Source: an uncultured Chloroflexia bacterium
GTDB lineage: Bacteria > Chloroflexota > Limnocylindria > Limnocylindrales > CSP1-4
Assembly (NCBI GenBank): GCA_963713975.1
Contig: OY970218.1
Location: forward strand, 1,088,001-1,152,000
Direction of reading: 5' to 3'
DNA length: 64,000 nt
The translations under genes and the position numbers were made by a program. Of this stretch, positions 16,322 to 33,721 are shown piece by piece. Every line of letters begins with the position of its first letter. Within the stretch, counting starts at the first letter, position 1. The notes under the pieces were generated by a model. It saw only the letters and a list, made by a program, of their open reading frames with translations, made no database searches and was not told the DNA's origin.

Positions 16322-17785
16322 CTAGAGGATCGCTGCGGCGGCCGTCCCGACGATGTCCAGCAGCAGGCTCGGGAACAGGCCCATCATGACGGTCACGACG
16401 GACGCCACGGCGAGGCCAGCCCAGACCAGGCGGCCGTGCCGCAGCGGCGGCAACTCCTCGGCGGGATCGCGCATGAACATGTACACGACGACGCGCAGGT
16501 AGTAGAAGGCCGCCACGGCCGCGTTGAGCACGGTCAGGACCGCCAGGACGTTCAGCCAGCCACCCACCTCGACCGCGGATGAGATCACGAGGAACTTGCC
16601 GAAGAAGCCGGCCGTGGGCGGGATGCCAGTGAGGCTGAGCATGAACAGGGTCATCAGCCAGGCCAGTGCGGGCTCGCGGCGGATGAGGCCGGCAAAGCTC
16701 GAGAGGTTGCTCGTGATCCCGCGCCGCCGCTGGATGGCCACGATGACCGCGAACGCGCCGAGGTTCATGAACGCGTAGGCGGCACCGTAGAACAGCAGCG
16801 CCTCCATCCCCGCGATGTTGCCGGCGGCGTACGCCGCGAACGCGACCAGCATGTAGCCGGTGTGCGCAATCGACGAGTAGGCCAGCATCCGCTTGACGTT
16901 GTCCTGCGTCAGGGCCACCAGGTTGCCGAGGGTCATGGTCAGCGCCGCGAGCACCATGATCACGGCGTTCCAGTCCGCGGCCATGGGGCCGAGCGCCTCG
17001 GCGAACAGCCGGATGATCAGCGCGAACGCCCCGATCTTGGGTCCCACGGACAGGTAGCCGGTGACGGGCGTCGGGGAGCCCTGGTACGCGTCGGGTGTCC
17101 AGTAGTGGAACGGGACCGCCGCGATCTTGAAGGCGACGCCCGTGGTCAGGAACGCGAGGCCCATGCCCAGGCCGGGCGGGAACGGTGCGGCCCCGGACAC
17201 CATGCCCTCCAGCGCCGCCGCCACGCCTTCGATCCGGGTGGTGCCGGTGAGGCCCCACACGAACGCGAGGCCGAACAGGAAGATCGCCGACGAGAACGAG
17301 CCGAGCAGGAAGTACTTGATCGCGCCCTCGGTGCTGTACCCGTCGCTCTTGTGGTAGCCGGCAAGGACGTAGCCCGGGAGGACCATGAGCTCGAGGCCGA
17401 GGAACAGGACCAGCAGGTCCGCGGAGCCCGCGATCAGCATGGCCCCCGACATGGCGAAGACGATGATCGCGGCGAACTCCGCGACCGGCAGCCCGCGCTC
17501 CTCGAGGTAGTCGGGTGCGAAGGCCATGGTCAGGGCAACGATCGCCACGAACAACAGGTCCAGGAACGTGGCCAGGGGATCCACGATGTAAGCGCCGCCG
17601 AACGAGTCTCCCTCCGTCTGGCCGGTCAACACCACGAGGACCGCGATGAGCGCGAGCCCGGCGAAGGTCGTGACCAGGGCCGGGACCTTGCGCCCGGGGA
17701 AGATGAAGTCCACGGCGAGGATCGCGGCGGCGACGAGGATCGCCGCGACGAAGGGCGCCAGCGTGACGATGTCGGGGAAGGTCAC
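16322..17785 (-). CDS. nuoN: NADH-quinone oxidoreductase subunit N
   Basis: 'EGAIKYFLLGS', 'FKIAAVPFHYWTPDAYQGSP', 'KRMLAYSSIAH'; GGAGG RBS before the GTG. Confidence 0.96.
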   Translation of the reverse strand: MTFPDIVTLAPFVAAILVAAAILAVDFIFPGRKVPALVTTFAGLALIAVLVVLTGQTEGDSFGGAYIVDPLATFLDLLFVAIVALTMAFAPDYLEERGLPVAEFAAIIVFAMSGAMLIAGSADLLVLFLGLELMVLPGYVLAGYHKSDGYSTEGAIKYFLLGSFSSAIFLFGLAFVWGLTGTTRIEGVAAALEGMVSGAAPFPPGLGMGLAFLTTGVAFKIAAVPFHYWTPDAYQGSPTPVTGYLSVGPKIGAFALIIRLFAEALGPMAADWNAVIMVLAALTMTLGNLVALTQDNVKRMLAYSSIAHTGYMLVAFAAYAAGNIAGMEALLFYGAAYAFMNLGAFAVIVAIQRRRGITSNLSSFAGLIRREPALAWLMTLFMLSLTGIPPTAGFFGKFLVISSAVEVGGWLNVLAVLTVLNAAVAAFYYLRVVVYMFMRDPAEELPPLRHGRLVWAGLAVASVVTVMMGLFPSLLLDIVGTAAAAIL

Positions 17786-17795
17786 CGGTGTCCTC

Positions 17796-19348
17796 CTACC
17801 GCCACAGGCCGAGGGCGATGGGCGAGGCCTGCGAGACGGCAGCAAGCGCGTAGTCGACGGAGCCCGCGATCAGGTCCAGGATCAGGCCCGGCCAGAGGCC
17901 GAACACGACGACCAGCGCCCCAAGCGGCACCAGCGTCATGGCCTCCACCGGCCGCATGTCGGTCAGGTGGTGTCCAAGGCCCTTGAGGAAGTCCGACACG
18001 TCTCCGAACGCCACCCGCTGGAACATCCACAGCAGGTAGCCCGCGGCCAGGATCATCACGAAGGTCGCGATTGCCGCAGCGGCGTAGTTGCCGGACTCGA
18101 ACGTGCCCAGCAGCGTCAGGAACTCGCCCACGAACCCGGACAGGCCGGGCAGGCCGACCGAGGCGAAGACGAAGAAGCCGAAGGCGGCCGCGAACACGGG
18201 CACCGGAGCGCCCAGGCCGCCCATCTTGGCGATCGTGCGGTCGTGGGTGCGCTCGTAGATGACGCCCACGAGGAGGAACAGCGCGCCGGTGATCAGGCCG
18301 TGGTTGACCATCTGGAGGATCGCGCCCTGCATGCCCTGCTCCTGGAACACGAAGATGCCGAGGGTCACGAAGCCCATGTGGGAGACGGACGAGTACGCGA
18401 CCAGCTTCTTGAGGTCCGGCTGAACGAGGGCGACGATCGCGCCGTAGATGATCCCGATCAGCGACAGGACGATGATCAGCGGGGCCCACGAGTGGGCCGC
18501 CTCGGGGAACAGCGGCAGCGCGAACCGGATGAACCCGTACCCGCCCAGCTTGAGCAGGACGCCGGCCAGGATCACCGACCCGGCCGTGGGCGCCTCGACG
18601 TGCGCGTCGGGGAGCCACGTGTGGAAGGGGAACATCGGGACCTTGATCGCGAAGGCCAGGAAGAAGGCGCCGAAGGCCAGCAGGCCGAAGGTGCCGCCGA
18701 ACGCACCGGTGGCGGCGTACTCGGACAGCGCCTGGACGTTGAACGCTCCCACCCAGCTGCCGTCGTGCCCGGCCTGGTAGGTGTACGCGGTGGCCAGGAT
18801 CGCGACCAGCATCAGCAGCGAGCCGACGAGGGTGTAGAGGACGAACTTGATGGTGGCGTAGATGCGGTTCGTGCCGCCCCAGATACCGATGATCAGGTAC
18901 ATCGGCACCAGGACCAGCTCCCAGAAGACGTAGAACAGGAACATGTCCATCGCCACGAACACACCGATCATGCCGACTTCCAGGACCAGGAAGGAGATCA
19001 TGTACTCCTTCACCCGGGTCTGGATGGGGCTGAACGAGGCCAGGATGCTGATCCAGGTCAGCGTCGTCGTCAGGACGACGAGGACCAGCGAGAGACCGTC
19101 GACGCCGACGGCGTACTGGATCCCAAATGCCGGGATCCACTCCGCGACCTCCTTGAACTGGAAGCCCGGCTCGCCAGCGACGAAGGCCACGAGCAGTGCC
19201 AGCGAGGCCACCCAGGCCGCCAGCGCGAACCCGAGGGCCACGTAGCGGGCGAGGTTCGGGCGGCTCCGAGGCGTCACCGCGACGACGAGCGCCCCGAGCA
19301 GGGGCAGGAACGTCACGATGGTCACCAGCGGCAACCCGTTGAGTGCGG

Positions 19349-19352
<4 letters not shown>
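17796..19352 (-). CDS. nuoM: NADH-quinone oxidoreductase subunit M
   Basis: 'IKVPMFPFHTWLPDAHVEAPT', 'LLKLGGYG', 'KKLVAYSSVSHMG'. Confidence 0.97.
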
Positions 19353-21409
<2,057 letters not shown>

Positions 21410-21421
21410 CTCGGTCGCCGC

Positions 21422-21754
21422 CTACTGCCGCATCGCGTCGTACTCGTCGACGAGTGGCGTCTTCTTGTTGCGGTAGATCGCGATCACGATCGCGAGGCCC
21501 ACCGTCGCCTCCGCGGCCGCTGCCGCCATGACGATCAGCGCGATGACGGACGCGTCCACGTTGAGCGACAGGCTGAAGGCGCCGAACGCGATGATCGCGA
21601 GGTTGACGGCGTTGAGCATCAGCTCGATCGACATCAGCATGCTGATCGCGTTCCGCCGGGCCAGGAAGCCGAACGAGCCGATGGCGAACAGGAGGCCGGC
21701 CAGGATCAGGTAGGCGTCGAGGCTCTGCGAGACGTTGTCGAGGAAGGACAGCAT
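21422..21754 (-). CDS. nuoK: NADH-quinone oxidoreductase subunit K
   Basis: 'RRNAISMLMSIELMLNAVNL', 'AAAEATVGLAIV'. Confidence 0.96.
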   Translation of the reverse strand: MLSFLDNVSQSLDAYLILAGLLFAIGSFGFLARRNAISMLMSIELMLNAVNLAIIAFGAFSLSLNVDASVIALIVMAAAAAEATVGLAIVIAIYRNKKTPLVDEYDAMRQ

Positions 21755-22290
21755 CAGCCGGCATCCTCCCGCTCGCGCTTGGCGAGGTACACGCCGCCGA
21801 TCACGGCGGCCAGGAGCAGGACGCTCACCACCTCGAACGGCAGCGTGTAGTCGCTGAACAGGGTCGTCGCCAGCTCCGTCGTGTCGGTCCAGATCCGGGC
21901 CCCCGCCTCGGGCCAGTCCGTGGCCACGATGCTGAGGATCACGAGGACGGCGAGCACCGCGGACGCGATCGCCGCCGGAAGGGCCTGCGTCTGGAACACC
22001 AGCTCCCGGGGCGCCGCCTTGGTCTGGGTGAGCATGATCGCGAACAGGACCAGGACGCTGATCGCGCCGATGTACACCAGGACCTGCGCGGCGGCGACCA
22101 CCGGTGATCCCGCGATCACGTAGAGCCCGGCCAGGGCGGCGAAGCAGATGATCATCGCCAGGCCCGACCGGATGATGTCGCGCATCAGGACGACCAGGAG
22201 GGCGGACCCGAGCATGACGGCCGCGAAGCCCATGAACAGCAGGTCGTCCCACCCGATCCCGAGCAGCGGGATCGTCTCAGGCAGCGTCAC
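21754..22290 (-). CDS. nuoJ: NADH-quinone oxidoreductase subunit J
   Basis: 'AQVLVYIGAISVLVLFAIML', 'YTLPFEVVSVLLLAAVIG'. Confidence 0.95.
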   Translation of the reverse strand: MTLPETIPLLGIGWDDLLFMGFAAVMLGSALLVVLMRDIIRSGLAMIICFAALAGLYVIAGSPVVAAAQVLVYIGAISVLVLFAIMLTQTKAAPRELVFQTQALPAAIASAVLAVLVILSIVATDWPEAGARIWTDTTELATTLFSDYTLPFEVVSVLLLAAVIGGVYLAKREREDAG

Positions 22291-24947
22291 GCGTCCCTCT
22301 CAGCGTTCGGGGCGGAGACGGCGTTTCCGGACCCTTGGTGGTGTCCGTTGCCGTTGCCGTTCCCGTGTCCGATCGCAAGCGAGGCCGGCAGGACGGGGAG
22401 CAGCCGGGACTCGTCGAGGATGCGGCCCTCGGCCCGTGCACGCTCCGCCCAGTCGCGCTCGCGGCGGATGTAGCTCATCTCCGTCTCACGCTCGATCCCG
22501 GCCAGCGCGAGGAGGTCGATCGACGGCTCCTCGCGGGACGTGTGGCTGAGCTCGAACTGGTCGCTGTCGCGGACGGCATCGTAGGGGCAGGCGTCGACGC
22601 AGATGCCGCACAGGATGCAGCGGCTCTCGTCGACCTCGTACTTCTGGAGGACGCGCGGCTTGGGCATCAGCGCACCGGTCGGGCACGTCTCCGCGCAGCG
22701 GCCACAGGACACGCAGGGCGTGTCGTTGAGGCTCATGTCCAACGGCGTCGTGACCAGAGTGTCGAAGCCGATGCGCATGAAGTCGTAGCAGGCGGCCCCC
22801 ACGACCTCGGCGCACACGTTGGCGCAGCGGCCGCAGTCGATGCACCGGGCGGGCTCGCGCAGGATGAAGGCGTGGGAATCGTCCCGGACGTAGTCGTGGT
22901 TGACGCCGGTGAACCGGTTCTCCGTCACGGACCGGTAGCCGGCGCCGGAGTGGAAGGTCTTCTCGAGCGTCCGAAGGGTCGTGCCGTACTCGATGCCCAG
23001 GCGGCGCAGGTCGCAGAAGCCGATCGCCTCGCATGTGCACTGGAGGCAGCGGGTCGACTCGGCCACGGCCTCGTCCCGCGTGTACGGGATCTCGTACTCG
23101 ATGTAGCTCGCGTTGCGGATCTCGGCCTCGAGGCCCTTGAGGCGGTAGCGCGACTCCTTGATCTCGCCGGTGAAGGGCACGATCGAGAGGAACTCGGGCT
23201 GCGGCTCCGCGAGCGTCTGGCGGGTCCGGATGGCAGCCAGGTCGTTGCCTCGGAGGTAGGCGTCCACCGCGTAGGCCGCTCGCCGCCCCTCGGCGATGGC
23301 CTGGACGACCGTCGCCGCGCCGATCCGCACGTCACCCGCTCCGAACACGCCGGGACGCCCGGTCTCGAACGTGACGGCGTCCGCCTGGAGGCGGCGGTTC
23401 CGGGTGGCCGTCAGGCCGTCGTTGCCGGGACCGAACCAGGCAAGGTCGGGGCCCTGGCCGATGGCGAGCAGGACGCGGTCGCAGGGGATGGTGAACTCGG
23501 TGCCGGCGGCCGGCTCCGGGCGGCGGCGGCCGGATGCGTCGGGCTCGCCGAGCTGCATCCGGATGAACTCGATCCCGACGGCCTTGCCGGTCTTCTCGTC
23601 AGTGACGACGCGCGTCGGACCGGCCTGGAAGATGGTGGTGACACCCTCCTCGATGGCCTCGTGGACCTCGCTCGCGGCCGGCATGTCCTTCATGTCGCGG
23701 CGGTAGACGAGCGTGACCTCGCCGGCGCCCTGGCGAACCGACGTCCGGACGCAGTCCATCGCCGTGAAGCCGCCGCCCACGACGACGACGCGGGTGCCCT
23801 CGTGGCCGGGGTACGGCAGGCCCAGCGTGGCGGTGCGCAGGTACTCCAGGCCGTCGATGACGCCGTCGGCGTCCTCGTTCGGGATGCCAAGCTTGTTCGT
23901 GTCGTAACAGCCGATGGCGACCACGACGCTGTCGAAGCCCTGGTGCTGGAGGTCGTCGAGCGTGAAGTCCCGGCCCAGCTCCATGTTGCAGCGCATCTTG
24001 CCGCCGAGCCGGGTGACCGACTCGTACTCGGCCTCGAGCACCTCCACCTTGGGCAGCCGGTACTGTGGGATGCCGTAGCGGAGCATGCCGCCGGGGGCCG
24101 CGTCGCGCTCGAAGATCGTCACACCGTGCCCGGCGAGGAGCAGGTAGAACGCCGCGCTCATGCCGGCGGGCCCGGAGCCGATGACCGCGGCCCGGCGCCC
24201 GGACGGCGCCTGCTTGTCGAACGGCAGCGGCGGGTCGACGTCATCATCGAGCATCGCCTTGAGCACCTGGTCGCCGGCATAGCGGTGGCTGTCGCGGATG
24301 GCGATGGCCTCGTCCACCTCGTCCCGCCGGCAGTGCTCCTCGCAGGGTGCCGGGCAGACCCGGCCGAGGATGCTGGGGAAGGGGATCGTGCGCTTGAAGA
24401 TGCGCACCGACTCCCGCCAGTTGGCCTCCGCGTTGGCCTTGAGGAAGCCGGGGATGTCGATGTGGCTGGGGCACTTGTTCTGGCAGGGCGGCAGGCAGTA
24501 GGCGTTGTGGTCCGAGAAGATCAACTCGAGGTTGGTCCGCCGGATCCGGCGCAGGTCGTCGGTCTGGGTCCGGACGACCATGTCCGGCTCGGCTGCGCGC
24601 GAGCACGAGATCGGCGGCTGCTCCTCGCCCTCGACCTCGACCACGCACATGCGGCAGGCGCCGAACCCCGGCAGCTTGGGCTCGTAGCACAGGGTGGGGA
24701 TCTCGATCCCGTTGTCGCGACAGACCTCGAGGATCGTCTGCCCCTCGAAGCCCTCGACGACGCGTCCGTCCACCTCGATCCGGATCCCCGGCGTGCTCTG
24801 CGGGCGCTGCGGCGACTGCGTGGTGAGCAGACGCTCCGCGAGCGAGTCGTCGCGCGGCGTGATGGTGTCGTAGATGAGCGGCGAGTCGGGGCGGACCTCG
24901 CGGGGTCGGTCGAGCGGGCCCTCGGGGCGCGTGATCAGGTCGGCCAT
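22287..24947 (-). CDS. Multidomain Fe-S flavoprotein: NuoG-type [2Fe-2S] + GltD/NfnL-like FAD/NADP(H) domain + 2x[4Fe-4S] motifs + NuoI C-terminal half
   Basis: IPTLC..GACRMC..C; PPCQNKCP; GRVCPAPCEEHC; GSGPAG; GGGFTAMD..VYRR; RCLQC; CIDCGRCANVC; CVSCGRCAETCP; YEVDESRCILCGICVDACPYDA..FEL. Confidence 0.85.
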   Translation of the reverse strand: MADLITRPEGPLDRPREVRPDSPLIYDTITPRDDSLAERLLTTQSPQRPQSTPGIRIEVDGRVVEGFEGQTILEVCRDNGIEIPTLCYEPKLPGFGACRMCVVEVEGEEQPPISCSRAAEPDMVVRTQTDDLRRIRRTNLELIFSDHNAYCLPPCQNKCPSHIDIPGFLKANAEANWRESVRIFKRTIPFPSILGRVCPAPCEEHCRRDEVDEAIAIRDSHRYAGDQVLKAMLDDDVDPPLPFDKQAPSGRRAAVIGSGPAGMSAAFYLLLAGHGVTIFERDAAPGGMLRYGIPQYRLPKVEVLEAEYESVTRLGGKMRCNMELGRDFTLDDLQHQGFDSVVVAIGCYDTNKLGIPNEDADGVIDGLEYLRTATLGLPYPGHEGTRVVVVGGGFTAMDCVRTSVRQGAGEVTLVYRRDMKDMPAASEVHEAIEEGVTTIFQAGPTRVVTDEKTGKAVGIEFIRMQLGEPDASGRRRPEPAAGTEFTIPCDRVLLAIGQGPDLAWFGPGNDGLTATRNRRLQADAVTFETGRPGVFGAGDVRIGAATVVQAIAEGRRAAYAVDAYLRGNDLAAIRTRQTLAEPQPEFLSIVPFTGEIKESRYRLKGLEAEIRNASYIEYEIPYTRDEAVAESTRCLQCTCEAIGFCDLRRLGIEYGTTLRTLEKTFHSGAGYRSVTENRFTGVNHDYVRDDSHAFILREPARCIDCGRCANVCAEVVGAACYDFMRIGFDTLVTTPLDMSLNDTPCVSCGRCAETCPTGALMPKPRVLQKYEVDESRCILCGICVDACPYDAVRDSDQFELSHTSREEPSIDLLALAGIERETEMSYIRRERDWAERARAEGRILDESRLLPVLPASLAIGHGNGNGNGHHQGSGNAVSAPNAERDA

Positions 24948-26287
24948 CAGCGGGCTCCTGCTGGTGCCGTGCCGGCGCCCACCGCGATCGGTGTGCACAC
25001 GCCGGCGGGGCAATGGGAGCGAAGGAGGTGGTCGTCGATCTCAGCGCGGAAGTGGCGCATCGCGCTGGTGAAGGGCAGGGTGGCGAGACGCTCGTGGTCG
25101 CACAGCGCGGAGGCCGCGATGTCCTCGGCAAGGTCCGTCAGCAGGGCCGCGTCCGTGGGCTTGGGCCGGCCGGAGGCAATCCGGTCGCCGATCTCGTACA
25201 GCCGGCGCAAGCCGATCCGGCAGGGGATGGATTTGCCGCACGCGGCGTCCGCGGAGAACTTCGTCAGCAGGCGGGCGAGGTCCACGATGCAGGCACGCTC
25301 GTCGGCGACGACCACGGATCCGGAGCCGATGTGAGCGCCGGCATCCCGCAGGGCATCGAAGTCGTAGGGGGTGTCCAGGAGATCCGGGGGCAGGAGGCCG
25401 CCCGTTGGACCGCCGACGAGCACCGCCTTGAGGGCCCGGCTGCCCGTGCCGCCCGCGAGCTCCACGATCGTGCGAACGGGCGTGCCAAGGGGCACCTCGG
25501 CCATTCCTGCGCCCTCGGGCCCGCGCACCTGGACGAGGATGGTCCCCGGTCCGGCCGGCGAGCCGATGCCTGCGAATGCCTCGCTGCCGTGGGCCACGAT
25601 CCACGGGACCGCGGCCAGCGTCTGCACGTTGTTGACCACCGTCGGCCGGTCGAACAGGCCCTTCTCGGTGGGGTACGGCGGTCGTTGGTCCGGCTGGCCG
25701 CGCTTGCCCTCGAGGGCCTTGATGAGGACGGTCTCCTCGCCCAGCATGTAGGCGCCCTGGACGGTTCGGACCGTCATGGTCACGCGATGGCCGGATCCCA
25801 GCACATCCTCGCCCAGGAAGCCCGCCTCCTCGGCCGCCAGCATCGCGCCCTCGAGGAGGGTCACCAACGCCGGGTCGTCGCCGCGGACGGCGAGGATCGC
25901 CTCGGTTGCGTCGACCGCGAAGGCGGCGATGGCCAGGCCCTCGATCACGGCCCAAGGATCCCGGCGCATCAGCTCCGCGTCGGTCTGGACCGCCGGGTCC
26001 GCGCCGTACCCGTTGGCGATGACGTAGCGCTGGTCTGCCGGCCGGCCGGCCGCGGCGCGCCACTTCTCGCCGGTCGGGAAGCCCGCGCCGCCGCGGCCCC
26101 GGAGCCCGGAGGCAGCGATCGTCGCGATCGTGCCGGTGGCGCCCAGGTCCCGAACCGTCGTGCGGAGGCTCTCGAACGCTCCCTCGCGGACCGCGGCATC
26201 GAGGTCGGACGGGTCCGCGGCCAGTGCGGCGGCACGCCCGGTGAGGATCGATGGCCAGTCGGCGGGCGTCGTGAGGAAGGGGCTCAT
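24947..26287 (-). CDS. nuoF: NuoF/HydB-like subunit with degenerate FMN/NADH and N3 motifs
   Basis: SGLRGRGGAGFPTGEKW and GEET..LEGKRGQP are intact. NGYGADP replaces NADEGEP and CGKSIPC replaces CGxCxPC. C-terminal H..CPAGVC. Confidence 0.8.
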   Translation of the reverse strand: MSPFLTTPADWPSILTGRAAALAADPSDLDAAVREGAFESLRTTVRDLGATGTIATIAASGLRGRGGAGFPTGEKWRAAAGRPADQRYVIANGYGADPAVQTDAELMRRDPWAVIEGLAIAAFAVDATEAILAVRGDDPALVTLLEGAMLAAEEAGFLGEDVLGSGHRVTMTVRTVQGAYMLGEETVLIKALEGKRGQPDQRPPYPTEKGLFDRPTVVNNVQTLAAVPWIVAHGSEAFAGIGSPAGPGTILVQVRGPEGAGMAEVPLGTPVRTIVELAGGTGSRALKAVLVGGPTGGLLPPDLLDTPYDFDALRDAGAHIGSGSVVVADERACIVDLARLLTKFSADAACGKSIPCRIGLRRLYEIGDRIASGRPKPTDAALLTDLAEDIAASALCDHERLATLPFTSAMRHFRAEIDDHLLRSHCPAGVCTPIAVGAGTAPAGAR

Positions 26288-26949
26288 CAGCTCGTGCGCC
26301 CCCCGAAGCCGAGGGAGGTGTCCAGCGCAGCCACGAAGGCGCTCTCGCCGGCCCGGTGTGCCTCACCCGCCGCGGCGATCGGCGTCATCGCGGGCGGCTC
26401 GAACCGGAGGTGGCCGTAGGAGGAGGCGGTGCCGTAGATCATGGCGTACCAGGCCCCGGTGATCCGCGAGATGTGCCTGAGCGCGGCCACGGGCAGGTAG
26501 CCGTACACCGCCTGCGTCTCCTCGAGGATGGCCAGCAGCAGCTTCGGGTCGTAGTCGCGGGCCTCGAGGATGGCGTCCAGCGGCGCCAGGTCGATCTGGT
26601 CGAACCGTGCGTAGGCCGGGTCGGCGACCGGTCGGCCGGATCGCCGGAGCGCGGACTCCTCGCGCCGCTCGCCGTACGTCTCCGAGGGACCCCAGTGCAC
26701 GTGGAAGCGCCCCTTGGTGTCCACGCCGCCCATGTCGATGCACTCGATGGGGCACGCCTGGGCGCACTGGAAGCACGTCTCGCACTTGAGCGTGCCGTAC
26801 TCGTCGTAGAGGAGCTGCAGGCGGCCCCGGAACTTGGGTGCCACGTCGGCGCGCTGCTCCGGCCACATGATCGTGGCCTTGGGCTGGAAGAACCGGCGCA
26901 GGGTGAGACCCATGCCGCGGACCAGACCGATGCCGGGGATGAAACTCAT
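26287..26949 (-). CDS. Fusion of NuoI N-terminal half and NuoE N-terminal helical domain (no [2Fe-2S] domain)
   Basis: 'GMGLTLRRFF..KATIMWPE..KFRGRLQL..KCETCFQCAQACPIECIDM', then 'LLAILEETQAVYGYLP..IYGTASSYGHL'. Confidence 0.8.
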   Translation of the reverse strand: MSFIPGIGLVRGMGLTLRRFFQPKATIMWPEQRADVAPKFRGRLQLLYDEYGTLKCETCFQCAQACPIECIDMGGVDTKGRFHVHWGPSETYGERREESALRRSGRPVADPAYARFDQIDLAPLDAILEARDYDPKLLLAILEETQAVYGYLPVAALRHISRITGAWYAMIYGTASSYGHLRFEPPAMTPIAAAGEAHRAGESAFVAALDTSLGFGGRTS

Positions 26950-26956
26950 AGGACGC

Positions 26957-28300
26957 TCACAGGCTCCTCACGACGACGATCGCCGTGGCGGTGATGAACA
27001 GGTTGAGCAGCGCGGCGGGCAGCAGCCACTTCCAGGCGAAGCCCATCAACTGGTCGATGCGCACCCGGGGGAAGGTGCCCCGCATCCACACGAAGATGAA
27101 CACGAAGGTGAAAGACTTGAGCATGAACCAGGCGATGCCCGAGACCCAGTCCCAGCCGATGTAGGCGAGGCCGAGCAGCGCGCCCATGGCCACGAGGTTG
27201 AATGTGAGGAACCCGAGGACCAGCGCCTGCCAGCCGGGGCTCTTGGTCCGCACGAGGTAGAAGGGCATCGCGAACAGCAGGGTCAGGGCGACCGGTGCCG
27301 CTGCCGCCAGGATCAGGAGGCCGATGCCGAGGCTGCCCGGATCGAGCGCCAGCGTGATGTCCGGGAACGGGAACGGCGCGTTCCAGGCCCCGAAGAACAG
27401 GGTCACCATCAACGCCGAGACGATGAACACGTTCACGTACTCGGCGAAGAACAGGAACCCGAAGCGCATCCCCGAGTACTCGGTGGCGAAGCCGGCCACG
27501 ATCTCCGAGTCGGCCTCGGTCAGGTCGAATGGCGTACGGTTGGCCTCGGCGGTGGCGGCGATGAAGAAGATCAACGCCCCCAGCGGCTGACGGAACACGA
27601 ACCAGTTCGTGAACCAGCCCCCCTGCTGCTCGGCGATCCCGTTGAGGCTCATCGTCCCGGCAAGCAGGATCAGGCCGACCACGGACAGCGTCAGCGGGAG
27701 CTCGTAGGAGATGGCTTGGGCCGCGGAGCGGAGGCCACCGAGGAGCGAGTACTTGTTGAAGCTGGACCAGCCCGCGAGCAGCAGGCCGACCACCGTCATG
27801 CCGCCGACCGCGAACAGGTACAGCAGCCCGATGTTGAAGTCCTGGCCCACCAGCCCGGGCCCGAACGGGATGACCAGGAAGGTCATCACCGCGGTCAGGA
27901 AGACGAGCACCGGCGCCCAGGTGAACACCAGACGGTCTGCGTTGGTCGGGGTGAAGTCCTCCTTGGTCAGCACCTTCAGTCCCGCCACCAGCGAGTGGAG
28001 GGCGCCTGCGGGTCCCACCCGGTTGGGCCCGACCCGCAGGTTCATATAGGCGATGACCTTGAGCTCCATGTAGATGATGATGAACGCGGCCGGGATGCTG
28101 AACAGCAGGATCGCCGTGATCGCCACCACGAACCGGACGATGCCCAGGTTCGAGCTCAGGACCTCCACGAGCCACGGGACCAGGTAGACCGCACCCAGGA
28201 TCGTCACGATCGGCCCGACGACGAGGATCAGGAACAGCAGCGGCAGGATGATCTTGCCGGCCGTGCTCAGGCCGCCCCGAGGCTGGTTGAGGGTCGTCAT
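26957..28300 (-). CDS. nuoH: NADH-quinone oxidoreductase subunit H (extended, 447 aa)
   Basis: 'RVGPNRVGP', 'KVLTKED', 'GGLRSAAQAISYE', 'NRTPFDLTEADSE', 'PRVRIDQLM'. Confidence 0.96.
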   Translation of the reverse strand: MTTLNQPRGGLSTAGKIILPLLFLILVVGPIVTILGAVYLVPWLVEVLSSNLGIVRFVVAITAILLFSIPAAFIIIYMELKVIAYMNLRVGPNRVGPAGALHSLVAGLKVLTKEDFTPTNADRLVFTWAPVLVFLTAVMTFLVIPFGPGLVGQDFNIGLLYLFAVGGMTVVGLLLAGWSSFNKYSLLGGLRSAAQAISYELPLTLSVVGLILLAGTMSLNGIAEQQGGWFTNWFVFRQPLGALIFFIAATAEANRTPFDLTEADSEIVAGFATEYSGMRFGFLFFAEYVNVFIVSALMVTLFFGAWNAPFPFPDITLALDPGSLGIGLLILAAAAPVALTLLFAMPFYLVRTKSPGWQALVLGFLTFNLVAMGALLGLAYIGWDWVSGIAWFMLKSFTFVFIFVWMRGTFPRVRIDQLMGFAWKWLLPAALLNLFITATAIVVVRSL

Positions 28301-28310
28301 CGGATCGCCG

Positions 28311-29543
28311 TCACTTGTCGATCCCGCCCATGACCGGATCGATGGACGCCATGACGGCCATCGTGTCCGCGATCAGGTTGCCCTTCATGAGCAGCCCGAC
28401 CAGCTGCATGTTCACGAAGGACGGGTCGTGGATCTTCATCCGGAAGGGCTGGTCCGTTCCGTCCGAGATGGCGTACGTGCCATAGAGGCCGCGCGGCGCC
28501 TCCACGGCCGCCCACGCCCGGCCCGGCCGCGGGCGGAGCAGGCGCGGGAGCCGCGCCATGATCGGGCCGTCCGGCATCTCGTGGAGGCACTGGTCGATGA
28601 TCCGCAGGCTCTGCTTCACCTCGTCGAGGCGGAGCAGGTAGCGGTCGAGCGAGTCGCCGCCACCGGGGGTGTTGCGGACCGGGATGTCGAAGTCCAGCTC
28701 CGGGTAGACGGAGTAGGGATGCGCACGGCGGACGTCGAAGGGCACGCCCGAGGCGCGCAGGTTCGGTCCTGTGACCGCCATCCGGAGGGCCGTGTCGGCG
28801 TCCAGCTTGCCGATGTCGCGCATCCGGCGGACGAAGATCTCGTTCTCGTTGAGCAGCCCGATGTTGGCCTCGTGCTGCTTCGCGGCTCGGCTCATCCAGT
28901 CGCCAAGGCGGGACATGAACTCGTGGTTGAGGTCGCCGTTCACGCCGCCGATGCGGAAGTAGTTGAACAGCATCCGCTGGCCGGTGATGGCGGCCAGCAT
29001 CTCCACGATCTCGTCACGCTCGATGAAGCTGTACAGGATCGGGGTCAGGCCGCCGAGGTCCAGCGCCATCCAGCCCTGGTACAGGGCGTGGCTGGAGACA
29101 CGCAGGAGCTCGCCGGTGAGCACCCGGATGTACTCCGCGCGGCGCGGCACCTCCACGTCCAGGAGCTTCTCGAACGCCATCACGGGCGCCCACTCCATGA
29201 ACAGCGAGCTCACGTACTCGAGCGGGTCCACCTGGCTGATGATGTGGTGGTAGTCCGAGTTCTCGCACAGCTTCTCCACCCCGCGGTGGAGATAGCCGAG
29301 GACCGGGTCCAGGTCGACGACCTGCTCGCCGTTGATCTTCAGGACGACGCGCAGCACGCCGTGGGTCGACGGGTGCTGGGGTCCCATGTTGAGGAACATC
29401 TCGCCGTCGCGCAGGCTGTAGAACTCGGCCTCGCGCTCGGTGCGGGGCGGGTACGGCGGGACGGCCTCGAACGCACCGATCTGGTTGTCGAGCATGATCC
29501 GGGGATCGTCCTCGGACGGGTGCTGGCCGGTGGGCGCGGTCAT
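28311..29543 (-). CDS. nuoD: NADH-quinone oxidoreductase subunit D
   Basis: 'NMGPQHPSTHGVLR', 'GYLHRGVEK', 'GPNLRASG', 'EAPRG'. Confidence 0.96.
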   Translation of the reverse strand: MTAPTGQHPSEDDPRIMLDNQIGAFEAVPPYPPRTEREAEFYSLRDGEMFLNMGPQHPSTHGVLRVVLKINGEQVVDLDPVLGYLHRGVEKLCENSDYHHIISQVDPLEYVSSLFMEWAPVMAFEKLLDVEVPRRAEYIRVLTGELLRVSSHALYQGWMALDLGGLTPILYSFIERDEIVEMLAAITGQRMLFNYFRIGGVNGDLNHEFMSRLGDWMSRAAKQHEANIGLLNENEIFVRRMRDIGKLDADTALRMAVTGPNLRASGVPFDVRRAHPYSVYPELDFDIPVRNTPGGGDSLDRYLLRLDEVKQSLRIIDQCLHEMPDGPIMARLPRLLRPRPGRAWAAVEAPRGLYGTYAISDGTDQPFRMKIHDPSFVNMQLVGLLMKGNLIADTMAVMASIDPVMGGIDK

Positions 29544-29546
29544 CGG

Positions 29547-30095
29547 TCAGGCCTTCACGGTGCGGCGAACCACGAGCTCGGGCGCCTGGGCCGGCGGGTG
29601 GGGCTGCTCCATGTGGCGGACACCACCGCCCGGGGAGCGCGCCGCATCGTCCGGCAGGTAGAAGTCCTTGCGCAGCGGGAAGCTGGTGTAATCGGGGGGC
29701 ATGTAGATCCGCCGCAGGTCGCGGTTGCCCTCGAAGATGATCCCGAACATGTCGTACGTCTCGCGCTCCATCCACTCCGCGCCGGGCCACAGCCCGGTCA
29801 GGGTGGGGATGCGCGGGTTGTCGCGGGGCAGGCCGTCTGCGATCACGCGCAGCCAGTCCGTCGTGGTCGCCGACCACAGGTGGTAGGTGACCTGCATGTG
29901 GGCCCCGGTGTCCACGCCGGCGAGATCCGCGAGGACCCCGAAGGCCAGCTCTGGCTCGTCATGGAGCGCGGTCATCACCTCTGTCAGGCTCGCCGGGCCG
30001 ATCCGGATCTCGGTCTCGTCGTGGCGCTGCCGGACCGGTCCCGTCAGGTGATCCGCGAACCGGCCCTCGAGGAGCTTGCGCAGCTGGCGATCCAT
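29547..30095 (-). CDS. nuoC: NADH-quinone oxidoreductase subunit C
   Basis: 'WPGAEWMERETYDMFGIIFEG..DLRRI...FPLRKDF'. Confidence 0.95.
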   Translation of the reverse strand: MDRQLRKLLEGRFADHLTGPVRQRHDETEIRIGPASLTEVMTALHDEPELAFGVLADLAGVDTGAHMQVTYHLWSATTTDWLRVIADGLPRDNPRIPTLTGLWPGAEWMERETYDMFGIIFEGNRDLRRIYMPPDYTSFPLRKDFYLPDDAARSPGGGVRHMEQPHPPAQAPELVVRRTVKA

Positions 30096-30097
30096 GG

Positions 30098-30841
30098 CTA
30101 GACGTCCCGCGGGACGTTGGGCCCGATGGGATGATCCGGCCAGTGGCCCCGCCGCTCCTTGACGAGCTGGCCCAGCTTCATCATCCCGTAGATCAGGCCC
30201 TCGGGGCGGGGCGGGCAGCCGGGGACGTACACGTCGACCGGCATCAGGCGGTCGATGCCCTCGATGGTGGAGTAGCTGCGCTTGTAGCGGCCGCCCGAGC
30301 ATGTGCAGTCGCCCATCGCGACGCACCACTTGGGCTCCGGCATCTGCTCCCACAGCCGGACGAGCGGGCCGGCCATCTTGGTGGTGAGCGTGCCGGCGAC
30401 GATCAGCACGTCCGCCTGGCGGGGGCTCGCACGGAACGGGAACATGCCCCAGCGATCCATGTCGTTCTTGGACGTGGCCGCGGACATCATCTCGATGGCG
30501 CAGCAGGCCAGGCCCGACAGGAGCGGCCACAGGCTGTTCATCCGGATCAGGTCGACGAGCAGGTCCGCCTTGGTGGGGATCACCTCCAGCGCGCCCCAGC
30601 GTGCCGTGTCCGACAGGACCAGGTCCGAGCCCTCCAGGTTCCGCAGGTGGGTGAACGCCGGGCTCCCGGAGCGGTACGCGTCCGGGCTGGTGGACGTCCA
30701 CAGCGTGTTGGGCACGACGAGTGGCTGCGCGACATCTCGCGGGGTCGCGGCGACCAGCGCCGATGCGGCGTTCGCGGCGGGGGGAGCGTCCGCCGCGGCG
30801 GCGTCGGGGACGACGGCCTCGCCCGCTTCGTCGGGGGTCAT
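30098..30841 (-). CDS. nuoB: NADH-quinone oxidoreductase subunit B
   Basis: '[10 protein letters not shown]', 'RASPRQAD', 'MGDCTCSGG', '[12 protein letters not shown]'. Confidence 0.96.
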
Positions 30842-31200
30842 CGCCACGACAGCACCCCCTTGCGCCATGCGTAGGCAAGGCCGAACAGGAGGATGCCGAC
30901 GAAGACCAGCATGCTCACGAACAGCGTGATCGGATCCGGGGCATCCCTGAAGATCAGGGCCCACAGGAAGATGAAGATCACCTCGATGTCGAAGGCGACG
31001 AACATCAGGGCGTAGATGTAGAACGAGATGCCGAAGCGGGCGTGCGTGTCGCCGTAGGTGTCGATGCCCGACTCGTACGGGTAGCCCTTGTGCTCGTCAC
31101 CACGGGTACGGTGGGAGATCAGCCAGGCCAGGCCGATCGTCCCGAAGACGAACAGGGTGCCGGCGATGACGAACCCGACGACGTACCAGATCCCGGTCAC
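30838..31200 (-). CDS. nuoA: NADH-quinone oxidoreductase subunit A
   Basis: 'YESG', '[10 protein letters not shown]', 'YAWRKGVL'; GTG 31200 has a GAGG RBS (alternative start 31293). Confidence 0.93.
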
Positions 31201-31302
31201 GAGGTCCTCGAGGCCGAACGGGGCCGGAGTCGACGGCCGGCCCTCGATCGTGCGGTTGGGTGGCGATGGCTCCGCCCCGCTGGCGCGCGGCACGGCGCGG
31301 TC

Positions 31303-31375: not shown

Positions 31376-31412
31376 CGTCCTGCGCCTAGCCGTCCTGCGC
31401 CTAGCCGTCCTG
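31376..31412. repeat. 15-bp tandem repeat CGTCCTGCGCCTAGC, about 2.5 copies, duplicating the stop region of the MidA-like gene
   Basis: Read directly from the sequence. Confidence 0.8.
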
Positions 31413-32639
31413 TGCCCCGCCGGGACGCGCGACGCGTTCGAGCGCGGGCAGCCGGACCGCCTCGGGCAGGCCCCGGCCGAAGGCGAGGACCCGGAACCCG
31501 CCCATCCCGCGCGGGTCGAGCAGGCGGGTGAGCGCCGAGCGGAGGGCAAGGCCGTCCTGGAGCGTGGCGCCGGGTCGACGCAGGTACGACCCCACGAGCT
31601 CTGCGGTGCCGACGCGCGCGAGCAGCTCGGCCTGGGTGGTCTCGCCCAGGGGTCGGAGCCCGACCGCCGCCGCGGAGGCTCGCACTGCTGCCAGGTCGAC
31701 CGTGGCCGTGAGGTCCTGGCGGCCGACATGCCGGAAGGGGTCGCCGCCGACGGCGTGTCGCGCGAACGTCCGGAGCGTGCCGTCGGGGTGGCCGGGCCCG
31801 TGGAGGACGGCGGGCTCCTCGGCGTAGTCGAGCAGCACGACGATGCCTCTGCCGAGGTCGCGGGTCGCGTCCGCGAGCCAGCCGTCGACGCCGACGCAGA
31901 TCTCGGTGACCTGGCCTTCCGCGAGCGAGATCCCCTCGTCCTGTAGCCGGTCCGCGAGCGCGGGCGTCGAGAGGTCACCCTCCACCCATGTGAACCCGCC
32001 ATCGTCGCCCGCGGTGACCAGCAGCTCGAGGGGGCCACCGGTACGGCCCACGACCCTGTGGACGGGGAGCGCGTCGAGGACCTCATTCGCGATGACCGCA
32101 CCGGCCGCTGGGCCGATGACCGTCCCCGGCAGGACAAGCCTGTCCGCCAGACCGGCTGTCGCCAGGCGCTCCCGCAGCGTGTCCAAGCGCGCGGCCTCCA
32201 CCTCCAGCGGCTGGTAGCGCACCGCGTCGAGGAATGCCGGGCCAACCTCGCGCAGCCCGTCCAGGAGCCCGGCGGCGAGCGTCCCCGTTCCCGCGCCCGG
32301 CTCCGTGATCACGAACTCTGCGGGCCTTCCCATCGCGTCCCACGCCTGCTCCAGCAGCCGCCCGACGGCCGCGCCGAAGATCGGGTGGGCCTCGGGCGAC
32401 GTGAGGAAGTCGCCGTGACGGCCGGGCCCGGGCGAGGGACGGCGGTAGTAGCCATGACCCGGCTCGTAGAGGGCCCGCTCCATGAACCGGGCGAAGGTCA
32501 TGGGCCCGGTCCGTGCGATCTCGTCCCGGATGGCGGCCGCCAGGGACTCGTCCTCGCCGACCGACTCGGGATCCGGCAGCGCCTCGCGGCGGTAGTCGGC
32601 GATGCCGGGCGACGCGGTGGGTTCTTCACCGCGGCTCAT
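31401..32639 (-). CDS. SAM-dependent methyltransferase, MidA/NDUFAF7 family
   Basis: 'GPMTFARFMERALY.PGHGYY', 'GDFLTSPE..PIFG', 'EPGAGTG', 'ANEVLDALPV', 'LLDY', 'QDLTATVD'. Confidence 0.88.
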   Translation of the reverse strand: MSRGEEPTASPGIADYRREALPDPESVGEDESLAAAIRDEIARTGPMTFARFMERALYEPGHGYYRRPSPGPGRHGDFLTSPEAHPIFGAAVGRLLEQAWDAMGRPAEFVITEPGAGTGTLAAGLLDGLREVGPAFLDAVRYQPLEVEAARLDTLRERLATAGLADRLVLPGTVIGPAAGAVIANEVLDALPVHRVVGRTGGPLELLVTAGDDGGFTWVEGDLSTPALADRLQDEGISLAEGQVTEICVGVDGWLADATRDLGRGIVVLLDYAEEPAVLHGPGHPDGTLRTFARHAVGGDPFRHVGRQDLTATVDLAAVRASAAAVGLRPLGETTQAELLARVGTAELVGSYLRRPGATLQDGLALRSALTRLLDPRGMGGFRVLAFGRGLPEAVRLPALERVARPGGAQDG

Positions 32640-33721
32640 CGGTCGCCCGACAGCGCCAGCCGCGCCCCCGGACCCACCAGCCCGTGCCCGCCGAGCAGGA
32701 TGGGGACGCTGGCTCCGGCCGCGGCCGCCGTGACCTCGGCCAGCCATGGGTCCCGGACCCGTTCGGGGAGCAGCAGGTCGCTGGCGAAGCGGTCCTCGGA
32801 TGTCGGCCAGTCCCGCTCGTCCGCACCGAGGTGATGGGCGAGGAGCACCCGGCTGTCGATCAGCGCGCCATCCGAGAGCCTCGCCACGAGGCGTCCGAGA
32901 CCCCCGGGGCCGTCGCGGTCCAGCAGCTCACCGAGCACGCTTCGCGCGGGCCGGCGGTTGGGTCGGCCGACGAGCGTCCCGGCGGCAGCGGTCCGCAGGC
33001 CACGCTCCTCGACGATGGCTCGAGTGCGGGACCCGGTCTCCCGCTCCAGCCAGCGCAGGTCGGCGGAGGCCATCCGGCCCGCGACCAGGAGCTCCGCACC
33101 AGGGTCCGCGACCAGGGTCCGGAGCGCGGTCAGTCTCGTCTGCACGACGGAGGCATCGGCGGCCTCGGGGAGCGGCAGGCCGTCGGGGGCGGCCCGGGCG
33201 CCGTCCAGGAGCACGAGGTCCAGCGGCGAATCGACGTCCATGGCGAGCCATCGCCGGGCCCGGAGGTCCGACACCGGGATCCCCGCCACCTCCGCCAGCC
33301 AGCGCGGAAGCGCGTTGTCCGAGGCCGGCGCCGCGGCGAGATCCCGGAACACCAGGTCCATCCGGGCGATCGCGATGACATCCGCCGAGTACCGATGGTT
33401 GGCGAGGGCCGCCGGCCGCATCCCCCCCGCCGCCTCGACGAATGTGCGCCGGTCCGCAGGGGTCGCCAGCGGGATCGCCCCAGCCCCCAGGACCACCAGT
33501 CCGATCGGCCGCAACTCCGCCACGAGCCGGTGGAGGCGCGTGCCGAATGGAGTATCGTCGGGCGGCTCGCGGCGGACGACGACCTCGCCCGCGCCGGCCG
33601 CGAGGAACCCGCGCCGGTGGTGCTCGGCGAGCGCGACCCGTGCGTCGTCCAGGCGGCGCAGGAGCGGCCCGGCGTCGGGAGCGAGCGCGGGGGCGAGAAC
33701 GAGGACGGTGACGGGCGGCAT
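32636..33721 (-). CDS. Hypothetical protein, possibly CofC/nucleotidyltransferase (GT-A)-like fold
   Basis: 'FGTRL', 'GAGAIPL', 'NHRYSADV', 'DNALPRWL', 'DVDSPLDL', 'EERGLR', 'SEDRFASDL', 'LLGGHGLV'. Confidence 0.55.
   Translation of the reverse strand: MPPVTVLVLAPALAPDAGPLLRRLDDARVALAEHHRRGFLAAGAGEVVVRREPPDDTPFGTRLHRLVAELRPIGLVVLGAGAIPLATPADRRTFVEAAGGMRPAALANHRYSADVIAIARMDLVFRDLAAAPASDNALPRWLAEVAGIPVSDLRARRWLAMDVDSPLDLVLLDGARAAPDGLPLPEAADASVVQTRLTALRTLVADPGAELLVAGRMASADLRWLERETGSRTRAIVEERGLRTAAAGTLVGRPNRRPARSVLGELLDRDGPGGLGRLVARLSDGALIDSRVLLAHHLGADERDWPTSEDRFASDLLLPERVRDPWLAEVTAAAAGASVPILLGGHGLVGPGARLALSGDR

Follow-up and report, generated by a model that had tools for sequence, protein, structure and literature searches.

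The 64,000 nucleotides analysed here (hereafter the window; positions 1,088,001 to 1,152,000 of contig OY970218.1) come from an uncultured Chloroflexia bacterium of the class Limnocylindria, the genome of which is a single contig of 3,624,741 bases with an estimated completeness of 92%, and they carry an operon for respiratory complex I (nuo genes) in which nuoI is found as two halves. Few enzymes have been studied as closely as complex I, the core subunits of which are generally regarded as almost invariant. The operon lies on the minus strand, as do all the features given below by their window coordinates, and consists of a Methyltransf_28 gene, nuoA-B-C-D-H, three genes that we call P1, P2 and P3, and nuoJ-K-L-M-N. 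Pfam and NCBIfam models recognise every core subunit (A, B, C, D, H, I, J, K, L, M and N) in this one cluster, with I in two halves. The usual place of nuoE, nuoF and nuoG is between nuoD and nuoH; none of the three was found there among the open reading frames (ORFs) of the window and their Pfam matches. The nuoI position, after nuoH and before nuoJ, is taken up by P1 (26287..26949, 220 amino acids), P2 (24947..26287, 446 amino acids) and P3 (22287..24947, 886 amino acids), which are coupled as the initial annotation of this DNA had read them: P1 and P2 overlap by TGATG, P2 and P3 do the same, and the stop of P3 overlaps the start of nuoJ by GTGA. The P2/P3 overlap places the start of P3 at the ATG in position 24947 and thereby corrects the longest ORF, which begins with the TTG at 25013.

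P1 begins as NuoI. Its residues 12-77 match positions 1-65 of the 121 positions of the NuoI model TIGR01971 (expect value, E, 6e-13; 48.4 bits), its residues 9-83 (26701..26925), which comprise the amphipathic helix and the first motif, match positions 13-88 of 180 of the NuoI equivalog model NF004536 (E 1e-14), and residues 9-73 align in phmmer searches to the TYKY/Nqo9/NuoI chains of many solved complex I entries. This segment holds the sole Fe-S motif of the protein, C56-x2-C59-x2-C62-x3-C66-P67 (26749..26784), the four cysteines and the proline of which are invariant in all 18 aligned homologues, at 26-89% identity. The second half of NuoI is found at the end of P3, where residues 764-808 (22524..22658) match positions 70-114 of TIGR01971 (E 4e-12, 45.8 bits), NuoI being the best family when this tail is scanned alone. 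The tail includes the third CxxCxxCxxxC motif of P3, C777-x2-C780-x2-C783-x3-C787-P788 (22584-22619), which is invariant in 23 of 23 homologues (45-91% identity) and in 11 of 11 C-terminal fragments, including those of cultured Ktedonobacteria. Both CxxCxxCxxxCP motifs of NuoI, P1 C56-P67 and P3 C777-P788, thus exist between nuoH and nuoJ, and on one and the same model the fragments that carry them cover complementary positions, 1-65 and 70-114. Neither P1 nor the P3 tail reaches the family cut-off of TIGR01971 (113.05 bits), and a search of the whole genome with this profile gave 36 weak matches, none of them over that cut-off. Since the two best of the 36 are exactly the complementary halves on P1 and P3, the split is not a chance resemblance. 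The initial annotation had described P1 as a NuoI-like start with one motif leading into a NuoE domain and the C-terminus of P3 as the missing half, and both descriptions hold; an intact nuoI serving the operon from elsewhere, which it had named as a possible refutation, was found in this genome neither with the NuoI model nor by tblastn.

The remainder of P1 (residues 125-214, 26308..26577) is an N-terminal helical domain of the NuoE/HydC/NfnC type, which matches positions 2-93 of 145 of PF01257 (NuoE) and, by sequence, the chains 9bov_C and 8oh5_A of the NfnC/StnA/HydC type. There is no cysteine in the translation after residue 70, so that the [2Fe-2S] cluster of NuoE has been lost, and the thioredoxin-like domain is missing altogether (220 amino acids compared to 279-283 in relatives). 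In the AlphaFold2 model of P1, residues 121-180 have predicted local distance difference test scores (pLDDT) of 81-96, and Foldseek superimposes the NuoE domain on 9bov_C with a root-mean-square deviation of 1.8 over 69 columns. The half-ferredoxin part (residues 25-114) is modelled with pLDDT below 50, which would fit, weakly, a fold of which only half is present. As for the NuoE part in other organisms, a P1 homologue of the P0230 type has the full four-cysteine [2Fe-2S] domain, and one of the homologues of this type is source-named Thermoleophilia; the P1 proteins of the class-mate locus L019 (6666-7511) and of the small-genome relative L022 (a 279-amino acid frame) keep the thioredoxin-like domain and have lost its second cysteine pair, and in the genus of the window this domain is wholly lost. 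These sequences suggest that the NuoE part of P1 decays stepwise across lineages, with the relatives as intermediate stages.

P3 is a modular flavoprotein in which a [2Fe-2S] domain, a GltD/NfnB-type domain for flavin adenine dinucleotide (FAD) and NAD(P)H, a HydA/HoxU-type 2[4Fe-4S] domain and the NuoI C-terminal half follow one another. The [2Fe-2S] domain (residues 55-129, 24561..24785; Fer2_4, N1b-like; PF13510, E 5e-20) has C87, C98, C101 and C115 invariant in 23 of 23 homologues. The GltD/NfnB-like domain (residues 151-568, 23244..24497; PF14691 and PF07992; TIGR01318, E 6e-96) matches NfnB (4ylf_B and 5jca_L) and contains two [4Fe-4S] sites and the FAD and NAD(P)H Rossmann folds, with invariant cysteine and glycine motifs. 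The HydA/HoxU-type domain (residues 695-760, 22668..22865) contributes motifs 1 (C702-C712) and 2 (C745-C755), all eight cysteines of which are invariant in the same 23 homologues. P3 keeps every cluster ligand as well as the FAD and NAD(P)H glycine motifs. Its residues 55-787 are colinear with 9bov_A (E 4e-157), with StnC (8oh5_C, E 3e-139) and with 9n5u_A; the alignment to 9bov_A stops at residue 699 of 1178. The three solved proteins continue with a formate-dehydrogenase-like domain of ~480 residues, and P3 has no Pfam match to a molybdopterin family.

P2 is a homologue of the core shared by NuoF and BfuB. PF01512 and PF10589 are its only Pfam domains, it aligns to residues 160-573 of the 630-amino acid HydB 8a6t_B (E 4e-102), and its matches to the HydB/NfnB/StnB core (E 1e-95 to 1e-102) are better than those to the NuoF of complex I (E 7e-76 for M. 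smegmatis and 3e-69 for T. thermophilus Nqo1). Bifurcating BfuB proteins have an N-terminal [2Fe-2S] and a C-terminal 2[4Fe-4S] domain, both of which are missing from P2, as are the extra BfuB clusters B2-B5. The RGRGGAGFPTG and GEET motifs are retained. The flavin/NADH loop reads NGYGADPA, compared to NADEGDPG or NADEAEPG in three NuoF paralogues of the same genome and NGDEGDPG or NADEGDPG in HydB/NfnB, and a pattern N-[AGL]-[YM]-x-[AS]-D replaces NADEGDPG in all six split-type P2 proteins examined (the window and loci L019-L023). The second cysteine of CGKCxPC is a serine in the P2 of the window and an alanine or threonine in two class-mates (L019 and L022), and is retained in three Ktedonobacteria-type sequences (L020, L021 and L023). 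We take the altered loop and CGKCxPC to be the sites for flavin/NADH and cluster N3, respectively.

The gene order of P1, P2 and P3, that is, a NuoE-like protein, a NuoF-like protein and a [2Fe-2S]-GltD-HydA-type subunit, is also that of transhydrogenases of the Bfu family, namely Sporomusa ovata StnABC (8oh5) and the NfnABC enzymes of Caldicellulosiruptor saccharolyticus (9bov) and Thermococcus sibiricus (9n5u). In the passages of the StnABC study that deal with these points (PMC10482914), StnC is described as a fusion of GltD-like and NuoG-like domains through which electrons from NADPH pass via FAD and a chain of clusters, its FAD does not bifurcate, the [2Fe-2S] cluster of StnA is needed for bifurcation, and two branching clusters on the formate-dehydrogenase side have a role that is not understood. 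In the present module, the NuoE-like part has no [2Fe-2S] cluster, P2 has lost the terminal cluster domains, and the formate-dehydrogenase-like C-terminal domain given for StnC in the same source (residues 683-1172; PMC10482914) has its place taken in P3 by the C-terminal half of NuoI. Moreover, Stn and NfnABC are soluble, whereas these genes are encoded inside the operon of a membrane complex. Judged by sequence, the inserted module is a trimmed Nfn/Stn-type unit and not a relocated NuoEFG, in line with the initial annotation, which had called it a foreign input module: P2 and P3 resemble Stn/NfnABC more than they do NuoF/NuoG.

This arrangement is a property of the class. Within the genus, 23 of 24 genomes encode full-length P1, the exception being an assembly of 72% completeness, and a second family of the order, with genomes of 1.0-1.4 Mb, has it in 16 of 16. 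A sample of the phylum showed it for three families of the class, in all genomes of each (15 of 15, 2 of 2 and 15 of 15), with 39-45% identity in the third. The figure of 132 of 301 obtained for P1 in the whole phylum sample does not measure how often the fusion occurs, because most matches outside the class cover residues ~3-100 and are ordinary NuoI; three unpublished genomes in that tally (G212, G184 and G310) are not used for any claim. When the NuoI model was run over 61 genomes of the class, the source genome included, 59 were without intact NuoI, and the table of its matches gave both halves in 60 and the C-terminal half only in one. A single contig carries both halves, at a distance of 4.0-4.8 kb, in 53 genomes (the unpublished G362 among them), and they are on separate contigs in 7, which are fragmented assemblies. 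The order nuoB-D-H-P1-P2-P3-J-L-M-N is kept in the class-mate L019 and in the small-genome relative L022, and the homologues of the class are source-named 'Candidatus Limnocylindrales'. The split that the initial annotation had proposed to seek in related genomes is thus widespread in them, and its view that the junctions look functional and not like a scar is supported by the intact frames, the invariant ligands and this class-wide conservation. A gap of ~1.4 kb separates P3 from nuoJ in L019 (11252-12625), compared to the 4-base overlap in the window, and may contain an extra gene.

Outside the class, P1-like proteins (26-30% identity) belong to operons of four genes, nuoB-P1-P2-P3, with unrelated genes on either side (L020, L021 and L023). 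The same Ktedonobacteria-type genomes have a separate nuoA-nuoC-nuoD-nuoH cluster without nuoB (L024-L026) and a second nuoJ away from the canonical operon, in addition to a canonical complex I. The NuoB of the window is 56-59% identical to this dispersed set and 46-52% identical to canonical operons, and its NuoD 43-45% and 40-41%, respectively; as far as identities can tell, both subunits side with the dispersed copies. A scan of named genomes returned 264 loci with a relative, and the best 80 of these are labelled almost all Ktedonobacteria, Ktedonobacterales or Chloroflexota, with one labelled Proteobacteria. Cultured organisms among them include Ktedonobacter racemifer DSM 44963, K. robiniae, Ktedonospora formicarum, Dictyobacter arantiisoli, Thermosporothrix hazakensis and Ktedonosporobacter rubrisoli. 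The order nuoB-P1-P2-P3 was found in 6 of the 6 loci checked, including that of K. racemifer DSM 44963, and therefore the cassette travels with NuoB, the subunit of cluster N2, so that all cofactor-bearing subunits of the arm move together. This co-travel argues that the NuoI halves work next to NuoB.

In 2[4Fe-4S] folds of the clostridial type, each cluster is bound by three cysteines of one motif and the fourth cysteine of the other. Motifs 1 and 2 of P3, ~30 residues apart, each have their counterpart in the two-cluster domain of 9bov_A when the two proteins are aligned, and no third motif follows in 9bov_A. If motifs 1 and 2 use each other's cysteines, motif 3 of P3 and the motif of P1 are each left without a partner; pairing these two restores the NuoI pattern seen by the family model. 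The 16 cysteines of the P1 motif and the three P3 motifs are invariant, also in relatives at 26-28% (P1) and 45-46% (P3) identity. From this bookkeeping and the known cross-ligation we infer that the two NuoI motifs form one fold, and that clusters N6a and N6b are each ligated by both chains. We have also co-folded P3 residues 690-850 and four 4Fe-4S clusters with P1 residues 1-115, using custom alignments. The score was 0.37, compared to 0.00 for the best of three controls, the runs agreed in at least 74% of contacts and the partner pLDDT was at least 57. This amounts to weak support. Of 157 solved complexes, 116 come up to the mark that this pair passes, as do 2 of 215 mismatched pairs; at scores of 0.60 or below, 18 of the 157 do so, and both of the mismatches that pass. 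The AlphaFold2 model of the P3 C-terminus (220 amino acids, 11-row alignment) had a mean pLDDT of 34 and was unusable. The initial annotation had placed N6a and N6b across two polypeptides; the complementarity of the halves stands, and the sharing of the clusters is suggested by the cysteine pattern and, weakly, by the co-fold.

All these data suggest a working complex I to which the split NuoI staples a non-bifurcating head that oxidises NAD(P)H, a reading to which we give a probability of about 0.78. The NADH head of NuoE, NuoF and NuoG would have been replaced by a trimmed three-protein module derived from Stn/NfnABC and encoded inside nuoI. The halves on P1 and P3 would re-form the 2[4Fe-4S] fold, with N6a and N6b each taking three cysteines from one chain and one from the other, and this shared fold would staple the module to the quinone module, in place of the docking provided by the large C-terminal domain of NuoG, which P3 does not have. 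Electrons would pass from NADPH to the FAD of the GltD-like domain, to its two [4Fe-4S] clusters and to the HydA-type clusters of P3, and then through N6a and N6b to N2 in NuoB and to quinone, while NuoL, NuoM and NuoN would pump protons. A second possible inlet would be NADH at P2. Because P3 keeps all its ligands while the sites of P1 and P2 are altered, entry of NADPH through P3 is the safer inference from the sequences. A bolder proposal, which we regard as possible although doubtful, is that Limnocylindria, and Ktedonobacteria with a second isoform, have a proton-pumping complex I fuelled by NADPH in which the NuoE/NuoF-like pair is decaying to a redox-silent scaffold and electrons pass via two jointly held [4Fe-4S] clusters; in such a case a natural split ferredoxin fold would serve as a covalent staple, and the enzyme might also run in reverse as a NADP+ reductase driven by the proton motive force.

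Several points weigh against the stapled complex I. The binding of the halves and their sharing of clusters depend on the reasoning given above and on a co-fold that may reflect the likeness of the pair to the intact NuoI of many solved structures. The redox competence of P2 is doubtful given its altered loop and the Cys to Ser change, the P2 of the small-genome relative L022 being still more degenerate, and the donor specificity of P3, NADPH or NADH, is suggested by homology. In two of the 61 class genomes, an intact NuoI is encoded as well. Regarding expression, short contigs of relatives at 85% likeness came from three RNA libraries and one DNA run, a few of them bridging nuoH/P1 (X22) and P3/nuoJ (X23 and X24); those from the RNA libraries belong to relatives, may be carried-over DNA and are not proof of transcription. 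None of the sequencing runs searched carries the stretch near-identically (best share 0.10). The two intact NuoI genes (G346:C21:90112-90495 and G360:C126:649-1032, 143 bits), both from one genus, are found besides the split pair, in G346 ~18 kb from it on the same contig, and may belong to a second, canonical complex I.

The sequence is also compatible with a self-contained domain of P3 motifs 2 and 3, which likewise counts against a shared fold and which is the core of the alternative that survives best, improbable as we consider it. NuoI would then not be shared: motifs 2 and 3 would make a closed NuoI-like 2[4Fe-4S] domain, motif 1 a single N4-like cluster, and P1 would be an anchor helix and tether with a motif that is vestigial or holds a separate extra cluster. 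The two motifs are only 21 residues apart, a spacing typical of small ferredoxins, the dicluster models Fer4_7 and Fer4_9 match P3 residues 745-791, and the models NF004541 (positions 59-126 of 168) and NF004540 (positions 45-125 of 139) span both. Against this, in the solved 9bov_A it is the counterparts of motifs 1 and 2 that form the two-cluster domain, and the fourth cysteine of motif 1, C712, is kept in 23 of 23 homologues even though a single N4-type cluster does not need it. Invariance of the P1 motif in 18 of 18 homologues, down to 26% identity, is not expected of a vestige, and among single families the isolated P3 tail matches NuoI best, at positions 70-114 only, complementary to positions 1-65 on P1.

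A truly bifurcating or confurcating Bfu unit, coupling NADPH, NADH or ferredoxin to quinone reduction, has far less to recommend it than the preferred non-bifurcating head. P2 and P3 are most similar to the bifurcating HydB/NfnB/StnB and StnC/NfnA, P2 retains the C-terminal CPxGxC stretch that aligns with HydB, and a membrane-bound Nuo-Bfu is predicted in the part of Schut et al. (2022; PMC9304861) that concerns such clusters. However, P2 consists of the flavin mononucleotide and N3 domains only (HydB 160-573 of 630) and the NuoE part of P1 has no cysteine, and the relevant passages of the two studies state that homologues without clusters B2-B5 do not bifurcate (PMC9304861), that the [2Fe-2S] of StnA is required and that the FAD of StnC is non-bifurcating (PMC10482914). 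With the defining extra clusters of bifurcating Bfu enzymes missing, the module more probably catalyses a simple NAD(P)H:quinone oxidoreduction than a bifurcation. An equally slim chance is left to P1, P2, P3 and NuoB being a soluble or otherwise separate NAD(P)H oxidoreductase, with an incidental place in the nuo operon and a membrane complex that is independent or defunct. This would be in accordance with the nuoB-P1-P2-P3 operons that stand alone among unrelated genes in Ktedonobacteria; but nuoB is precisely the gene missing from the nuoA-C-D-H cluster of these genomes, which also have the second nuoJ, and NuoB and NuoD of the window are closer in identity to that dispersed set than to canonical operons. 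In addition, P1 retains the NuoI N-terminal segment, aligned to TYKY/Nqo9 from residue 9, and the source genome has no other NuoI or complex I-type N2 subunit, its other NuoB-like match being 43% identical and located at C1:1164-1172 kb. Finally, a misassembly, which the initial annotation had raised itself, or a nuoI pseudogene disrupted by an insertion has nothing in its favour beyond the unusual gene order and is refuted by the comparative data, given the single 3.62 Mb contig, the intact frames with overlapping starts and stops, the invariant cluster ligands and the presence of both halves in 60 of 61 class genomes and of the split in another class.

Compared with NuoI/Nqo9/TYKY (NDUFS8; TIGR01971/PRK05888), the proteins described here share the place between nuoH and nuoJ, the N-terminal segment, the two CxxCxxCxxxCP motifs and the NFE-type tail, but NuoI is one polypeptide, whereas here the two motifs are 4.1 kb apart on two polypeptides, each fused to another protein. 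With respect to the canonical complex I (NuoA-N), the eleven core genes A, B, C, D, H, I and J-N are in the usual order; there is no nuoEFG after nuoD, no molybdopterin-like domain of NuoG and no N1a, a FAD/NADPH domain has been added and NuoI is split. The Nuo-Bfu clusters in the corresponding part of Schut et al. (2022; PMC9304861) are alike in that a predicted Bfu-related module feeds a Nuo pump from genes in the middle of the nuo cluster. As given there, they are 14-subunit A-N clusters of Deferribacteres, Proteobacteria, Planctomycetes and Nitrospirae in which BfuB has ferredoxin domains and BfuABC stand at the NuoEFG place, while here the module is inside nuoI, has a GltD domain and is without the bifurcation clusters; the term NuoI has 0 occurrences in the main text of that paper. 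Mbx-like operons, in the section of Degli Esposti (2015; PMC4758237) on them, likewise have a GltD-type NAD(P)H flavoprotein at the place of NuoI. There NuoI is substituted in a relative of hydrogenase type, whereas here both NuoI halves are kept, NuoE/NuoF-like proteins are present and the operon is a nuo operon of the quinone type. A full-text literature search for split or fused NuoI, complex I of Limnocylindria or Chloroflexi, and StnABC together with complex I, with subscription journals and supplements outside its reach, gave no description of it, and this layout of complex I is apparently undescribed.

In an entire, environmentally abundant class of soil and freshwater bacteria, two polypeptides thus appear to make up the N6a/N6b subunit, and a FAD/NADPH module derived from a transhydrogenase appears to supply the pump with electrons. 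If this is true, input modules of complex I can be exchanged by insertion into a core gene and not by docking through NuoG, and there is a natural split of the 2[4Fe-4S] ferredoxin fold. The metabolic annotation of these genomes would also change. Pipelines label P1 as 'subunit E' or 'ferredoxin' and P3 as 'FAD-dependent oxidoreductase' or 'formate dehydrogenase', and with such labels the genomes seem to be without nuoI, nuoF and nuoG. As cultured Ktedonobacteria carry the cassette, the proposal can be tested at the bench.

The other genes of the operon are as follows. Upstream of P1 are nuoA (30838..31293; PF00507 Oxidored_q4, E 4e-30), nuoB (30098..30964; PF01058 at ORF residues 154-264, E 2e-26), which has the tandem CC of cluster N2, nuoC (29547..30095; PF00329, E 2e-37), nuoD (28311..29543; PF00346, E 3e-82) and nuoH (26957..28300; PF00146, E 3e-107). 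Downstream of P3 follow nuoJ (21754..22290; PF00499, E 9e-33), with a GTG start, nuoK (21422..21754; PF00420, E 3e-24), nuoL (19349..21409; PF00361, PF00662 and PF01010), nuoM (17796..19352; PF00361, E 4e-78) and nuoN (16322..17845; PF00361, E 8e-74). The coordinates of nuoB and nuoN are those of the longest ORFs, the true starts probably being further in. When the proteins of the window were compared with the genome by tblastn, one nuoH, one nuoJ and one P1 were found, the nuoH and nuoJ of the window being the only copies, and the best explanation is that this operon is the only respiratory complex I of the organism. Directly upstream of nuoA (window 31401-32747) is the gene of the Methyltransf_28 protein (PF02636, E 1e-45). 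We take this to be the family to which NDUFAF7/MidA, the methyltransferase of mitochondrial complex I assembly, belongs, and the product of the gene may be an assembly or modification factor of this complex.

Two further clusters with relatives of complex I subunits were found in the same genome, outside the window. The first (C1:1164000-1172100) has NuoL/M/N-like genes, a NuoD-like gene (26% identity), a NuoB-like gene (43% identity) and a NuoI-like piece with two motifs within a 316-amino acid frame, and gave no NuoH match by tblastn; it is probably a complex of the Mbh/Mrp type. The second, soluble-looking and paralogous (C1:778500-782900), has a NuoE-like gene, a 2Fe-2S/HoxU-like part and a long NuoF-like protein which is fused to a GltD-like domain and has an N-terminal thioredoxin-like part. 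This cluster may encode a true enzyme of the Nfn-Bfu/Stn type and could be a source of the inserted module.

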